This document shows positions 2,122 through 56,258 of a stretch of 64,000 nt of DNA, one piece after another (position 1 is the first letter of the stretch; each line of letters begins with the position of its first letter). The translations under genes and the position numbers were made by a program. Origin of the DNA: a virus; IMG/VR virus record IMGVR_UViG_3300023174_000065; one strand, given 5' to 3'. The notes below the pieces were generated by a model. It was not told the DNA's origin, made no database searches, and worked only from the letters and a program-made list of their open reading frames with translations.

Positions 2122-3846
2122 TTGAGTTGGAAAAAATATTTTACTCCCGTAAACACTGATGGCGCCAATAGTCCAGTAGGAAGTACGTCAAATAGAGCAA
2201 ATCCCAGTCGTGCAAATTACTCTAGTTTTTTGCCAGATGTGTATTCAGGTCACCCAAACCGTCAGGAAAGATATTCCCAATATAACACCATGGACTCAGA
2301 TTCAGAAGTCAATGCTGCACTTGATATTCTTGCTGAATTTTGCACTCAAATTAATGATACCAACCGTACTCCATTTGAATTCTTTTTTAGAGACACTGCG
2401 ACTCAGGCTGAGATTCTAGTCTTAAGAAAATATCTCCAGCAATGGTGCAAGATGAATAAGTTCACAAACAGAATTTTTAAAATAGTCAGAAATGCATTTA
2501 AGTTCGGTGATGTGTTCTTTGTCAGGGATCCTGAAACCCAAGAGTGGATGTATATTGATCCATCAAAAGTTGATAAAATCATTGTCAATGAAAGCAGTGG
2601 AAAATTACCAGAGCAATATGTAATTAGAGATCTTAATATTAATTTGCAAAATTTGACAGTAACTCAGATTAATCCTAGTAATACCTCAGGTACACCAGGA
2701 GGCACCAATTACATGACTGCTGGCACTCAGCAACGAGGCATGGCTGGAAGCATTCCAGGAAATGTTGGAACCAGATTTCAACTTAATCAAAATCAGTATG
2801 CTATAGATGCCAAACATGTAATTCACCTATCGATGAGTGAAGGATTAGATGATAATTTTCCCTTTGGTAACAGTCTATTAGAAAGTATTTTTAAAGTTTA
2901 TAAGCAAAAAGAATTACTTGAAGACGCGATTATCATTTATCGTGTGCAACGTGCTCCAGAGCGTAGAGTATTTTATATTGACGTTGGTAACATGCCAAGT
3001 CACCTAGCAATGAGCTTTGTTGAAAGAGTCAAGAACGAAGTAAATCAACGAAGAATTCCTAGTTTGACCGGTGGCGGAACAAGCGTTATTGACACTAGCT
3101 ACAACCCATTAGCAATAGGTGATGATTTCTTCTTTCCACAAACTGCGGAGGGAAGAGGTAGTAAAGTTGAAATTCTTCCAGGCGGATCAAATTTGGGGGA
3201 AATAGATGATTTACGGTACTTTACTAATAAGCTTTTTAGAGCGTTGCGTATTCCTAGCAGCTACCTTCCCACCGGTCCTGATGATGGAGGCTCTGCCTTT
3301 AACGATGGTAGAGTGGGAACCGCCTATATCCAAGAGTTGAGATTCAACAAATATTGTCAGAGATTACAAGGAATCTTAAACGAGCACTTTGATAATGAAT
3401 TTAAATTGTATCTCTTTAACAAAGGGGTTAATGTTGATCCTAATATTTTTGATATTAAATTTAATCCTCCTCAGAACTTTGCCTCATATCGCCAAGCAGA
3501 AATGGACACCGTTCGGGTTTCCACGTTTGCAAGTATGTCAGAGGTAGCCTTTATTAGTAAGCGATTTGCATTAAAGCGTTTCTTAGGTATGAGCGAAGAA
3601 GAAGTTGCAGAAAATCAAAAGTTGTGGAGAGAGGAAAATCTGGAAAATATTCATCAGGGACTAGGTGCTAGTGCGGAAATGAGATCAGCGGGAATTACAG
3701 CAGGTGGTGCAGCAATGGATCTAGGTGCAATTGATAATGCTGGTATTCCTCCAGAAGGAATGACAGACGGTGATACGGGAGCGGCACCACCAGCTCCAGG
3801 AGCGGCACCAACGCCAGGAGCTACTTCAGCTCCTCCGCCGATGTAA
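2122..3846 (+). CDS. gp20: Portal vertex protein (T4 gp20-like), TTG start
   Basis: Motifs LLEDAIIIYRVQRAPERRVFYIDVGNMP, EGRGSKVEILPGGSNLGEIDDLRYF and ELRFNKYCQRLQ. Confidence 0.95.
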   Translation: MSWKKYFTPVNTDGANSPVGSTSNRANPSRANYSSFLPDVYSGHPNRQERYSQYNTMDSDSEVNAALDILAEFCTQINDTNRTPFEFFFRDTATQAEILVLRKYLQQWCKMNKFTNRIFKIVRNAFKFGDVFFVRDPETQEWMYIDPSKVDKIIVNESSGKLPEQYVIRDLNINLQNLTVTQINPSNTSGTPGGTNYMTAGTQQRGMAGSIPGNVGTRFQLNQNQYAIDAKHVIHLSMSEGLDDNFPFGNSLLESIFKVYKQKELLEDAIIIYRVQRAPERRVFYIDVGNMPSHLAMSFVERVKNEVNQRRIPSLTGGGTSVIDTSYNPLAIGDDFFFPQTAEGRGSKVEILPGGSNLGEIDDLRYFTNKLFRALRIPSSYLPTGPDDGGSAFNDGRVGTAYIQELRFNKYCQRLQGILNEHFDNEFKLYLFNKGVNVDPNIFDIKFNPPQNFASYRQAEMDTVRVSTFASMSEVAFISKRFALKRFLGMSEEEVAENQKLWREENLENIHQGLGASAEMRSAGITAGGAAMDLGAIDNAGIPPEGMTDGDTGAAPPAPGAAPTPGATSAPPPM

Positions 3847-5291: not shown

Positions 5292-5918
5292 ATGTCGCGC
5301 TACTTACGAGAACATTTGAGTTTTGACCAAGCTCGCGTCATTTTAGAAAATGATGGAGAGAATGGTAAAAATCTTTGGTTAAAAGGCATTTGCATCCAAG
5401 GCGGGATCCGCAACGCTAATCAGCGTGTTTATCCAGTTAATGAAATTGGCAATGCTGTCAAGACATTGAATGACCAGATTCAAAACGGATATAGTGTTCT
5501 CGGAGAAGTTGACCATCCAGATGATCTTAAAGTAAATTTAGACCGTGTGTCGCACATGATTACAGAAATGTGGATGGACGGTCCTAATGGATATGGCAAG
5601 ATGAAAATTTTGCCAACTCCTATGGGTAATCTCATCAAGACAATGTTAGAATCAGGCGTAAAACTTGGCGTAAGTTCCAGAGGTAGCGGAAACGTTAAAG
5701 ACGGAACTGGAGAAGTTTCTGATTTTGAAATTATCACTGTTGATATTGTTGCCCAGCCGAGCGCGCCTGGAGCTTATCCAACTCCTGTATACGAGCATCT
5801 TATGAATAATAAGGGCGGATATCAAAGTTGGAGAGTTGCGCAAGAAGTTAAAGAAGATCCAAAGGCCCAAAAATATCTGCAAGAATCTATCGTGCAGATT
5901 ATTAAAGGTCTAAAATAA
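5292..5918 (+). CDS. gp21: Prohead protease (T4 gp21-like)
   Basis: Motifs NANQRVYP, GEVDHP, VSHMI, LGVSSRGSG and DIVAQPSAPGAY. Confidence 0.95.
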   Translation: MSRYLREHLSFDQARVILENDGENGKNLWLKGICIQGGIRNANQRVYPVNEIGNAVKTLNDQIQNGYSVLGEVDHPDDLKVNLDRVSHMITEMWMDGPNGYGKMKILPTPMGNLIKTMLESGVKLGVSSRGSGNVKDGTGEVSDFEIITVDIVAQPSAPGAYPTPVYEHLMNNKGGYQSWRVAQEVKEDPKAQKYLQESIVQIIKGLK

Positions 5919-7036: not shown

Positions 7037-8212
7037 ATGTCACAACTTCTGAACGAAAGATGGTCAGAAACCAAAGAAGCTCTGCTTGAAGGCCTCCAAG
7101 GGACCCGCAAAGCTTCGATGTCTGTATGCCTAGATAATACACGTCGTTACCTTTCAGAAAGCGCTTCCTCTGGTGCGACTTCTGCAGGCAACATTGCTAC
7201 ACTAAACCGCGTCATTCTTCCAGTAATTCGACGTGTTATGCCAACTGTTATTGCTAACGAAATCGTTGGTGTTCAGCCAATGACTGGTCCAGTTGCTCAG
7301 ATCCACACTCTACGTGTTCGTTATGCTGATAACGCATCAGACGTAGTTGCTGGTGAAGAAGCACTATCACCATTCAAGATTGCTGCTGCATACTCAGGTA
7401 ATGATTCTGCATCAGCTCCAAAGGCAACTTCAACTGCACAGCTTGAAGGTACTCCAGGTCGTAGAATGAGCATTCAGATCTTGAAGGCACCAGTTGAAGC
7501 AAAGAGCCGTAAGCTCTCTGCTCGTTGGACCTTCGAAGCTGCTCAAGATGCACAGGCTCAGCAGGGCATTGACATCGAAGCAGAAATCATGGCAGCTCTT
7601 GCACAGGAAATCACAACTGAAATCGATCAGGAAATCCTTGCATCACTCCGTGCTCTTGCATCAGTCGAAGAAACATATGACCAGTCACTTGTTTCTGGTA
7701 CAGCAACATTCGTTGGTGACGAACATGCTGCTCTTGCAATTCAGATTAACCGCGTAAGCAACAAGATTGCACAGCGTACTCGTCGTGGTGCTGGTAACTG
7801 GGCTGTTGTGTCTAACCAGGCACTAACAATCCTACAGTCAGCTACCACTTCTGCGTTTGCTCGTACAACTGAAGGTACTTTTGAAGCACCTACAAACACT
7901 AAGTTCGTTGGTACTCTAAACGGTGCTATGCGCGTTTATGTTGATGCATATCGTCCAGATAGCGACGACGACAACCAGGTTCTTATTGGTTATAAGGGTT
8001 CGAGCGAAGCAGACGCTGCTGCGTTCTACTGCCCATATATTCCTCTAATGAGTTCAGGTGTTGTTCTTGACCCAGCAACTTTTGAACCAGTTGTTGGTTT
8101 CTTGACCCGCTACGGCTACATCGAATTGACAAATACTGCATCGAGTTTGGGAAATGCTGCCGATTACTTGGGCAAGGTTTCAATCACTTCTGCAAACGTA
8201 AGCTTCAAGTAA
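7037..8212 (+). CDS. gp23: Major capsid protein (T4 gp23-like)
   Basis: Motifs IRRVMP, VGVQPMTGP, AKSRKLSARWT, FYCPYIPL and TRYG. Strong codon bias and SD. Confidence 0.97.
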   Translation: MSQLLNERWSETKEALLEGLQGTRKASMSVCLDNTRRYLSESASSGATSAGNIATLNRVILPVIRRVMPTVIANEIVGVQPMTGPVAQIHTLRVRYADNASDVVAGEEALSPFKIAAAYSGNDSASAPKATSTAQLEGTPGRRMSIQILKAPVEAKSRKLSARWTFEAAQDAQAQQGIDIEAEIMAALAQEITTEIDQEILASLRALASVEETYDQSLVSGTATFVGDEHAALAIQINRVSNKIAQRTRRGAGNWAVVSNQALTILQSATTSAFARTTEGTFEAPTNTKFVGTLNGAMRVYVDAYRPDSDDDNQVLIGYKGSSEADAAAFYCPYIPLMSSGVVLDPATFEPVVGFLTRYGYIELTNTASSLGNAADYLGKVSITSANVSFK

Positions 8213-8237
8213 GTTTAACTCACAAGTACAAAAAATT

Positions 8238-8268
8238 GAAAGCGCGGCGAAAGTCGCGCTTTCTTTTT
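8238..8268 (+). terminator. Rho-independent terminator after the capsid gene
   Basis: GAAAGCGCGGC-GAAA-GTCGCGCTTTC followed by TTTTT. Confidence 0.9.
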
Positions 8269-8291
8269 GTATAGAATTTAAAAATAATAGC

Positions 8292-8314
8292 AATGCAGCA
8301 GACTATAATAAATA
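8292..8314 (+). promoter_or_regulatory. Late promoter AATAAATA (8307-8314) with an abutting putative operator AATGCAGCAGACTAT
   Basis: The box is 4 nt upstream of ATG 8319. The preceding 15 nt read NAADY, matching the capsid C-terminus. Confidence 0.6.
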
Positions 8315-8318
8315 TAAG

Positions 8319-9119
8319 ATGAAACATTTTATATACAAAACAACTCACGTTAATGGCAAATACTACATTGGTCGTCATAGTACCGATAATATAGATGATG
8401 GTTATATTGGATCGGGAAGATGGCCCAGGTCTATCAAAGATAAGTCAGTATTGACTAGGGAAATTCTAGAATTTGCCGAAGATTATGATCATCTAATTAG
8501 GTTAGAAAATCAATATCTAGTAGAACATTATGGAAAACCAAACTGCATGAATATGAGCAATGTTAGTACTGGATATGCGACCGGCAATGCTAATCCAATG
8601 AATAATCCAGAAACTGCTTCAAAAATTAGTGGTGATAATCATTGGTTAAAAAAGAATCCAGAAAGGATTGAAGAAATAAAAGATAGACAACTAATTGCAT
8701 CAAAAGACGGGACACACAATTGGTTAGGCTCAAGAAATCCTAATAAAGATGGTTCTATATCTAGAAAAACTGCATCTGAAGGATGCAATATATTTCAAAC
8801 CAACAATCCCAGTATATGGAGAAGTGAGCAAGGAATTCATCATTGGCAAAATGGTAATAGTCCTAACTATGAAGGTAAACTTAATAAAAAATTAGTTGAA
8901 GAAGGTCGGCATAACTGGCTAGGTCCAGATGCAAATAATAAACGAATTTCAGAGGGTACACATAATTTTCTTGGCAGTGCAAGCAATGAAAAAATGCTGG
9001 CAGAAGGCAGTCATCCGTCTCAGCAAAAGAAAATATGTGAACATTGTGACAAATCTATGAGCGTGGGCATGTACAAACGTTGGCATGGCGACAATTGCAA
9101 ATTTAAGGAACCACGATGA
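8319..9119 (+). CDS. Free-standing GIY-YIG (Seg-like) homing endonuclease
   Basis: N-terminal FIYKTT...YYIGRHST...YIGSG. About seven GxHxW/F repeats. C-terminal CxxC...RWHGDNCK. Confidence 0.85.
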   Translation: MKHFIYKTTHVNGKYYIGRHSTDNIDDGYIGSGRWPRSIKDKSVLTREILEFAEDYDHLIRLENQYLVEHYGKPNCMNMSNVSTGYATGNANPMNNPETASKISGDNHWLKKNPERIEEIKDRQLIASKDGTHNWLGSRNPNKDGSISRKTASEGCNIFQTNNPSIWRSEQGIHHWQNGNSPNYEGKLNKKLVEEGRHNWLGPDANNKRISEGTHNFLGSASNEKMLAEGSHPSQQKKICEHCDKSMSVGMYKRWHGDNCKFKEPR

Positions 9120-9635: not shown

Positions 9636-9718
9636 CTAAATAGATTGTCAGGTCTTAAAAAGTATTATGCAGAAACCCGCTGCGTATGTCATAGAATGAC
9701 ACATCAAGGAGAAAACAA
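9636..9718 (+). promoter_or_regulatory. Late promoter CTAAATA plus structured 5' leader (two hairpins)
   Basis: TATGCAG-aaacccg-CTGCGTA (9666-9686) and TGTCAT-aga-ATGACA (9687-9701), then AAGGAG SD. Confidence 0.6.
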
Positions 9719-10642
9719 ATGGGACGTCCAATTAATAGTAAGTTTTTCGGTAACTTAAACCGACCATATAATAATTTTGCCACTGGTGGTCTTACTGGTG
9801 TTGGCGGAGAAAGCATTGCAACTGTATCAGTTTCAAACAGTGGTACGCTATACTCACAAGGTGCTGTTGTAACAATCTCTGCTCCAAATATCACTGGTGG
9901 TATTCGTGCAACAGTTTCCACGACTGCTAATGCCGCTGGCAATGTTGCTGTTACTATTGCTAATTCTGGTACTGGTTATACTGCAACTAGTACATTATCA
10001 ATCTCAACTGCATCTGCTGTTACAAAAGTTACAACTGGTACATCTGCTACTACTGTAATTTATCCTGCTACTACAAGTGGTATCTATGTTGGTATGAAGG
10101 TAATTGGTACAGGTATTAGTGCAAGTGCTACCTATGTAACTTCATTCACTGGTGCAGCAGTTAACTTAACTTGGCCAAATGCTACCGCAATTTCGACATC
10201 TGTTAACTTCGTTGATGTTGGTACTGGATTTGCAGGAATTGTTTCTGCTCTTACTACTACTACTCAAAATGCACTTAGAATTACTACATATCTAACAACC
10301 GGAAGTTCCGCGGTTACTGGCGGCGATATCCTTAAGCAGGATTCAAGCCGTAAATATTTGGTACAGAATTCACAGGGTCGAGGCGTAGTTAAACTAAGCG
10401 CAGGAACTGGAACAAATCATGTGCTAGAACCAGGCGGAATGCATTTGATTGCAACTGACTTTGGTGGTTCAACTTATTATGTTCTTAAGCTAACTGCTCG
10501 TCGTGTAACTTTAACAGATCGTTCGGGTACTAGTACTGCATTAGTAACTCTAACAACTGGCACAGACGGTGTAAAAACTGGATCTGCTAAATGGACTCTT
10601 GGTGCAGCAACAGGCACTATTGTCACTCTTTCTAACGCTTAA
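9719..10642 (+). CDS. Abundant virion protein, Thr/Ser/Gly-rich (possible decoration protein)
   Basis: Capsid-like codon bias, with its own promoter, SD and terminator. Confidence 0.6.
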   Translation: MGRPINSKFFGNLNRPYNNFATGGLTGVGGESIATVSVSNSGTLYSQGAVVTISAPNITGGIRATVSTTANAAGNVAVTIANSGTGYTATSTLSISTASAVTKVTTGTSATTVIYPATTSGIYVGMKVIGTGISASATYVTSFTGAAVNLTWPNATAISTSVNFVDVGTGFAGIVSALTTTTQNALRITTYLTTGSSAVTGGDILKQDSSRKYLVQNSQGRGVVKLSAGTGTNHVLEPGGMHLIATDFGGSTYYVLKLTARRVTLTDRSGTSTALVTLTTGTDGVKTGSAKWTLGAATGTIVTLSNA

Positions 10643-56234: not shown

Positions 56235-56258
56235 TATTTATACAAATGCAAACTCGTC
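56235..56258 (-). promoter_or_regulatory. Late promoter TATAAATA (56235-56242) overlapped by a putative operator GACGAGTTTGCATTTGTA (56241-56258)
   Basis: The box is 5 nt before ATG 56229. The upstream 18-mer encodes DEFAFV, like the C-extein. Confidence 0.7.

Follow-up and report, generated by a model that had tools for sequence, protein, structure and literature searches.

A sequence beside the predicted late promoter of a free-standing GIY-YIG endonuclease gene probably mimics a recoded site in the adjoining capsid gene of a jumbo phage

The window analyzed here is a stretch of viral DNA of 64,000 nucleotides (IMG/VR record IMGVR_UViG_3300023174_000065), and its source is a Rak2/121Q-like jumbo phage with a head-gene block of the Rak2/121Q/GAP32/XaC1 kind. 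Downstream of the gp23-type major capsid gene (gene 23) lies an open reading frame (ORF) for a predicted GIY-YIG homing endonuclease, and in front of this ORF stands a 15-bp copy of the capsid codons for Asn-Ala-Ala-Asp-Tyr (NAADY; Table 1). In our judgement this copy is likely to be an autorepression operator in the style of I-TevI which mimics a homing target in gene 23, the resident target having been recoded. The comparison with relatives supports well the view that the locus would represent operator mimicry of the I-TevI type, a kind of mechanism already known, carried over to a free-standing enzyme. Binding and cleavage by the endonuclease, repression of its own gene and immunity of the resident allele are what we infer from these patterns.

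A preliminary description of this DNA had reported both NAADY 15-mers and the adjacent element AATAAATA, and its coordinates and letters are exact. The two 15-mers are identical at 11 of 15 positions, including all the non-wobble positions, and the four differences all fall on third codon positions, so that the sites differ solely by synonymous changes, as had been stated. The pattern AAYGCNNSNGAYTAY matches the 64 kb at these two places only, with 0.13 matches expected from shuffling. When the window spacer was shuffled, a five-residue capsid match turned up in 75 of 20,000 trials if just the 40 nt next to the ATG were considered, and in 406 of 20,000 for the full 106-nt spacer. From the single window, the match is suggestive and not decisive. 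The comparative data lift both the copy and the codon shift described below far above chance.

IMG/VR was scanned twice, once by capsid and once by endonuclease. The first set comprises the 80 most similar capsid loci (L003–L082) and the second 80 metagenomic relatives of the endonuclease with 50–81% identity (L083–L162). Capsid loci with and without the endonuclease are referred to as HEG+ and HEG-, respectively; the same-strand HEG+ set (n = 80) consists of 79 relatives and the window. The 15-mer is carried with at least 9 of its 10 non-wobble positions by 74 of these 80 loci, and the count rises to 79 when L084 (8/10) and four inverted copies are included. The inverted copies, in L148 and L152–L154, retain their place before the promoter. 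At HEG- loci the pattern occurs only within the capsid gene and there is no copy downstream of it. The family-wide consensus of the copy is AAYGCNRCNGAYTAY, compared with AAYGCNGSNGAYTAY for the capsid site, the putative target. Across 44 unique contexts, copy positions 1, 2, 4, 5, 10, 11, and 14 show no variation and 8 and 13 next to none, and 3, 6, 7, 9, 12, and 15 vary. All five wobble positions thereby fall within the six least conserved of the 15, for which the calculated chance is 6/3003.

The capsid peptide SS[LF]GNA[AG]DY is kept in all 161 capsid alleles examined. Four HEG+ lineages have a capsid Gly replacing the second Ala (NAGDY), and three of these four (L084, L148, and L152–L154) have G at position 8 of the copy, a base found there in no NAADY lineage. 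This covariation between copy position 8 and the capsid residue lends moderate support to the predicted mimicry.

The copy ends 0–4 nt upstream of TAAATA. This hexamer is located 5 nt before the endonuclease ATG in 43 of 53 unique loci and therefore implies a leaderless endonuclease mRNA. In the window it forms part of AATAAATA; in the relatives it is preceded by GA, TA, GC, CA, AA, or AC, and the T4-type, gp55-dependent consensus, placed at about -10 of late genes, is TATAAATA. TAAATA is also found upstream of other structural genes in the window. For two Rak2-like phages with a gene for a gp55-like sigma factor, CBB and GAP32, ATAAATA is the predicted late promoter consensus (PMC5259590). 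The copy abuts the predicted promoter of the endonuclease.

The 266-residue ORF matches the homing endonuclease family phrog_314 (E 3.6e-21), and its C-terminus matches phrog_12324, an intron-like DNA endonuclease. By tblastn it is 24–46% identical to GIY-YIG endonucleases annotated as Seg-like in T4-like and rhizobial phages. An AlphaFold (AF2) model was built from 24 homologues, with a predicted local distance difference test score (pLDDT) of 82–94 across residues 1–80. The top structural match of residues 1–86 is the catalytic domain of I-TevI (1mk0; Foldseek probability 1.00, template modelling score 0.59), which aligns with a VIA Z of 7.8 and a root mean square deviation of 3.2 Å over 84 of 97 residues at 26% identity; further GIY-YIG proteins rank after it. 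Residues Y6, Y15/Y16, G18, R19, E63, and N78 are invariant in the 24 aligned homologues, and they may include the counterparts of I-TevI Y6, Y17, R27, E75, and N90. Beyond the catalytic domain, the protein consists of consecutive helix-plus-GxHN[WF]xG repeats and a C-terminal Cys/His cluster, of which C240, C243, H256, and C260 are likewise invariant across these homologues. On this evidence, the ORF is a modular free-standing GIY-YIG endonuclease of the Seg/I-TevI kind.

The capsid of L083 is 98% identical to that of the window, but the endonucleases (3001–3804 in L083, 8319–9116 in the window) are just 81% identical. Residues ∼110–160 are swapped for a different repeat module, which is also seen in L095 and L121 and indicates module shuffling in the DNA-binding part.

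The capsid site itself lies in a segment of unusual codon usage. In the window, the last 35 capsid codons have a mean ln relative adaptiveness (ln w) of -0.89 against -0.28 for the rest of the gene and a third-position GC content (GC3) of 0.54 against 0.31, and the last sliding window of codon adaptation is the second lowest of 72. The switch to rare codons over the last ∼35 codons that had been pointed out in the preliminary description is borne out by these values. Comparison with endonuclease-free relatives, which had also been suggested there, yielded a dip that is centred on NAADY and tracks the endonuclease. With each capsid allele scored against the codon usage of its own gene body, HEG+ and HEG- alleles do not differ in codon adaptation along the gene until ∼40 codons before NAADY, and the strong difference is confined to about codons -16 to +14 around it. 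Here HEG+ alleles have a mean ln w of about -1.1 to -1.3 and HEG- alleles one of about -0.4 to -0.5. Local GC3 rises from 0.31 to ∼0.5 in this zone. Typical recodings turn GGT into GGG or GGA, GCT or GCA into GCC, ACA into ACC or ACG, and TCN serine codons into AGY.

The same dip is present when only the close clade is considered (6 HEG+ and 22 HEG- alleles). It is deepest at codons -4 to +1, where the two groups differ by -1.44, and is gone beyond -17 and +14. Nucleotide differences fixed between HEG+ and HEG- alleles were looked for by eye in this clade and none was seen; the recoding is visible there solely as a shift of codon preference. Six independent sister contrasts were drawn on a tree of the capsid body only. 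About 5.5 of them are de-optimised with the endonuclease and none shows the opposite (p = 0.031, the lowest value attainable with six pairs).

Copies and capsid sites were also compared directly. When scored with a matrix made from the copies, HEG- capsid sites resemble the copies more than HEG+ sites do (0.38 vs -4.03 bits at the free positions). The copies match the capsid site of their own genome at 1.50 of 6 free positions, compared with 1.79 for permuted partners (p ∼0.003), and they match HEG- capsid sites at 2.18 of 6. Gene conversion between the copy and the resident site was considered and rejected, the free positions being anti-correlated and not correlated.

In the mechanism that we propose, the Seg-like enzyme, whose gene is situated past the capsid terminator and ahead of the following late promoter, would recognise with its DNA-binding part the capsid DNA encoding NA(A/G)DY, ∼140 nt upstream of its own gene. 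The enzyme would cut this region in co-infecting relatives that lack the endonuclease, and repair of the break would provide the cut genome with the endonuclease gene and with the adjacent 3' end of the capsid gene (intron-less homing). A target look-alike of 15–17 bp, placed just upstream of the TAAATA that drives the presumably leaderless endonuclease mRNA, would be bound by the enzyme, which would damp its own transcription as I-TevI does. In carrier genomes, the capsid site and ∼45 nt on each side would have been rewritten in synonymous, non-preferred codons, and this rewriting would reduce recognition or cleavage of the resident allele. The preliminary description had likewise supposed a Seg-like enzyme aimed at the 3' end of gene 23, a recoded resident allele and an operator derived from the original target. 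The first two parts and the operator agree with the comparative evidence, namely the near-constant presence of the copy in HEG+ loci, its codon-phase degeneracy, its inversion, its absence from HEG- loci and the recoding. The survival of the original target is another matter, as a relic of that target and an evolved or maintained mimic cannot be told apart here.

Several observations weigh against this mechanism. Searches of the 266-residue protein against Pfam, NCBIfam, and PDB-sequence profiles gave no match (PF01541 included), and its family assignment relies on fold, PHROG, and tblastn matches. L156, which has an inverted gene, and L093 lack the copy and the gene is still intact in both. 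L127 and L137 depart from the covariation of copy and capsid, which may reflect just 1–3 independent events. In the independent contrasts, the resemblance of the wobble bases to the operator does not reach significance (p 0.22). L012 and L002 are HEG- alleles that look recoded, and no endonuclease remnant was found in them. Finally, the recoded zone could consist of foreign DNA that came in together with the gene and not be a product of selection for immunity.

In the alternative that fares best, the copy is a true operator of the endonuclease, but the recoded capsid 3' end is a hitch-hiking co-conversion tract or a by-product of repeated break repair, for example GC-biased repair. We regard this as unlikely, though by no means negligible. 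HEG+ alleles from different clades are closer to each other in their local codon states than to HEG- alleles, and the gene body has no such split (local-to-body ratio 0.80 among HEG+ vs 0.66; local identity in the close clade 0.44 vs 0.32). Shared states of this sort would be expected under both convergent selection and joint transfer of the gene and the capsid 3' end, and the local rise in GC3 is in keeping with a repair by-product. The two-base switches between serine codon families and the peak that falls exactly on the motif fit selection on recognition better than passive drift. Resident sites are also anti-correlated with their own copies at the free positions, and a donor tract would still have needed one initial recoding for some reason.

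A second alternative would make the 15-mer a promoter-proximal element for some other factor, such as a phage late-transcription protein or a host protein, or a duplication relic with no role, in which case its likeness to NAADY would say nothing about a target. The operator is predicted from sequence, the copy abuts a promoter, and the single-window shuffle p is just 0.004–0.04, all of which leave this idea a slight chance. It does not lead one to expect that the pattern would be found nowhere else in the 64 kb despite other TAAATA promoters, that the copy would be specific to the endonuclease cassette, or that it would be degenerate in wobble phase and covary at G8 with a capsid residue, and a mere relic would have decayed across 50% protein divergence. 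Hardly probable at all is a role of the copy in the RNA of early or read-through transcripts, where it might supply one arm of a hairpin that masks the start codon: a sigma-70-like promoter lies upstream in 17 of 53 unique spacers, so that longer transcripts would contain the copy, and hairpin control of translation has a precedent in T4 endonucleases (PMC2988022), but the RNA around the copy folds into no stable structure (z -0.04), the inverted copies of two lineages would yield a different RNA, and pairing leaves the codon-phase variation unexplained. An Rfam scan likewise gave no above-threshold match over the copy; the sole match above its gathering score is that to freshwater-2 at 9653–9721. 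The inversion and the lack of a stable fold argue for the predicted nature of the copy as a protein-binding DNA site and not an RNA element.

The proposed operator has a precedent. The I-TevI operator overlaps the late promoter of its gene and is identical to the homing site at 15 of 20 positions, and I-TevI bound to it represses its own transcription without cutting there (PMC2988022, citing Edgell et al., 2004). The window endonuclease resembles I-TevI in its N-terminal GIY-YIG catalytic domain, in its C-terminal metal-binding cluster and in the target-like sequence at a late promoter just upstream of the ORF. It differs in that the gene is free-standing rather than intron-encoded, a series of GxHN[WF]xG-type repeats makes up the middle of the protein, and the putative target is not the insertion point but lies ∼140 nt away in a neighbouring essential gene. 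The copy in turn abuts the promoter instead of overlapping it, is degenerate in codon phase, and can be inverted.

The free-standing Seg enzymes of T4 provide the other comparison. SegF and SegG cut within the neighbouring gene at a distance from their own and drag flanking markers along, and T4 segD lies just after gene 23, in antisense and with no promoter of its own, its target being listed as unknown (PMC2988022). The window gene is like those of SegD, SegF, and SegG in being a Seg-like GIY-YIG gene adjoining an essential gene, which for segD is also gene 23. Unlike segD, it is on the sense strand and has its own predicted late promoter, and T4-type Seg proteins are just 24–30% identical to its product. 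The searchable literature yielded no account of an operator mimic for a free-standing endonuclease.

It is difficult to locate what a free-standing homing endonuclease targets, as the gene does not interrupt its target. At this locus, a conserved look-alike on the promoter side would point to the target, and the recoding footprint in the carriers points independently to the same 15 bases. If confirmed, the mechanism would extend I-TevI-style autorepression from intron enzymes to free-standing ones, and operator mimicry together with the recoding footprint could predict both targets and immunity alleles. It would also show a selfish nuclease shaping the codon usage of the most conserved structural gene in a large environmental clade of jumbo phages.

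A more far-reaching version, which we hold to be distinctly unlikely, is that the approximately seven GxHN[WF]xG helix-turn repeats read DNA in triplet register, contacting the two informative bases of every codon of a conserved peptide motif and ignoring the third. The copy would then be a logo of the specificity. A single self-immunising and self-limiting mobile unit, made up of the capsid 3' end, the terminator, the operator, and the gene, would serve in competition between co-infecting jumbo phages. Were this so, one could compute from the operators which sequences such endonucleases target.

The preliminary description had gone on to suggest a general rule, since a second endonuclease in the window seemed to be arranged in the same way. 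This endonuclease lies between the split-intein halves of the large terminase gene, an arrangement corresponding to that of 'fractured' genes (Dassa et al., 2009; PMC2677866). It belongs to a different nuclease family from the capsid-linked enzyme and is associated with a different target gene. Its copy (56235–56258, minus strand), GAC GAG TTT GCA TTT GTA, lies upstream of the endonuclease gene and overlaps TATAAATA, and the terminase C-extein encodes CDEFAFV. The one informative relative found, L163 (2440–2500), is 61% identical, has the same gene layout and keeps the DEFAFV copy with one synonymous change. The design with a promoter-side copy thus holds for two unrelated nucleases in this phage. 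Beyond it the suggestion fared less well: among the annotated Seg-like genes of the cultured phages phiM7, Vibrio phage D479, Aeromonas phage 25, and Acj61, none of the four has a five-residue copy of a neighbour within 45 nt upstream, in a crude test that required an exact peptide match, covered ±3 kb only and included several genes without a spacer. The rule is therefore not supported as general in the form proposed; it may apply where an endonuclease has a late promoter of its own within a spacer.

The endonuclease gene is not part of an intron or intein but an ORF of its own, which has been inserted between conserved genes. HEG- loci have the order capsid terminator, (T)TGAC-TAAATA late promoter, conserved leader, and homologue of orf307 (at 9719 in the window), with orf307 starting 125–161 nt after the capsid stop. 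A hairpin equivalent to the capsid terminator is found in all relatives, with or without the endonuclease. The HEG- loci share the junction of (T)TGAC TAAATA type that is seen at orf307 in the window, and in them it comes straight after the terminator of the capsid gene. The block inserted between terminator and orf307 promoter in the window comprises the endonuclease, its own upstream region and two small ORFs. The latter have no family match in profile searches, and neither the endonuclease-free relatives nor most of the other HEG+ loci carry them. At the DNA level, the capsid gene itself shares ∼70% identity with the major head genes of XaC1, BF, GAP32, and 121Q.

Table 1. Coordinates of the features discussed, numbered from the first nucleotide of the window.
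Feature	Position	Strand	Remarks
Peptidase_S77 prohead protease	5292–5918		
gp23-type major capsid gene, 391 aa	7037–8212	+	Pfam PF07068 Gp23, E 2.2e-99
Synonymous recoding zone of HEG+ capsid alleles; putative recognition/cleavage region	8105–8197	+	codon offsets about -16 to +14 around NAADY
Capsid NAADY codons; putative core of homing target	8153–8167	+	AAT GCT GCC GAT TAC, in frame
Capsid intrinsic terminator, hairpin and T run	8238–8263	+	terminator scan
Intergenic 15-bp copy of capsid site; proposed operator	8292–8306	+	AAT GCA GCA GAC TAT
AATAAATA, late-promoter-like element	8307–8314	+	TAAATA at 8309–8314; 4 nt before ATG
Predicted free-standing Seg-like GIY-YIG homing endonuclease, 266 aa	8319–9119	+	
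GIY-YIG catalytic domain, residues 1–86	8319–8576	+	predicted structure
C-terminal Cys-Cys-His-Cys cluster (C240, C243, H256, C260)	9036–9098	+	
Two small ORFs, 81 and 98 aa	9116–9635	+	with the endonuclease, between capsid gene and orf307
TAAATA of native orf307 late promoter; right edge of inserted block	9637–9642	+	
Second endonuclease, 311 aa	55294–56229	-	between split-intein halves of large terminase

The distribution of the gene marks it as mobile. It is absent from all the 80 loci of the capsid scan, and all the 80 relatives found by the endonuclease scan adjoin the 3' end of a capsid gene of the same clade; 79 of these are on the same strand and downstream, 96–163 nt past the capsid stop, and L156 is inverted. 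The tree of the capsid body requires at least 7–9 changes of endonuclease status. The endonuclease is patchily present among close relatives and has been gained and lost. At L061, a HEG- locus with a recoded capsid site, a remnant of the endonuclease C-terminus lies 142–225 nt past the capsid stop; it corresponds to the region of the Cys-His cluster (52% identity, with a gap). This locus looks like a decaying endonuclease element.

Some individual loci have further peculiarities. In L156 (2860–3880), the endonuclease gene is convergent with the capsid gene and has a sigma-70-like promoter, with neither TAAATA nor the 15-mer, and the capsid site is recoded. The spacer of L062 has NUMOD3-like repeats 461–583 nt past the capsid stop (a weak match, E 0.73) and may house a different endonuclease. 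L058 and L059 (∼2930–3190) fold back ∼10 codons past NAADY. A break-induced event is possible there, but as a signature of a break the fold-back was set aside, because its arms differ at synonymous sites and a chimeric assembly of two strains is more likely.

The leader of orf307 (9653–9721, plus strand) matches the Rfam family RF02980, freshwater-2, with 51.3 bits against a gathering score of 49.9 (E 1.8e-6). This leader is also kept in endonuclease-free relatives, directly after the capsid terminator. The orphan freshwater-2 motif is thus placed in a late mRNA of jumbo phages.

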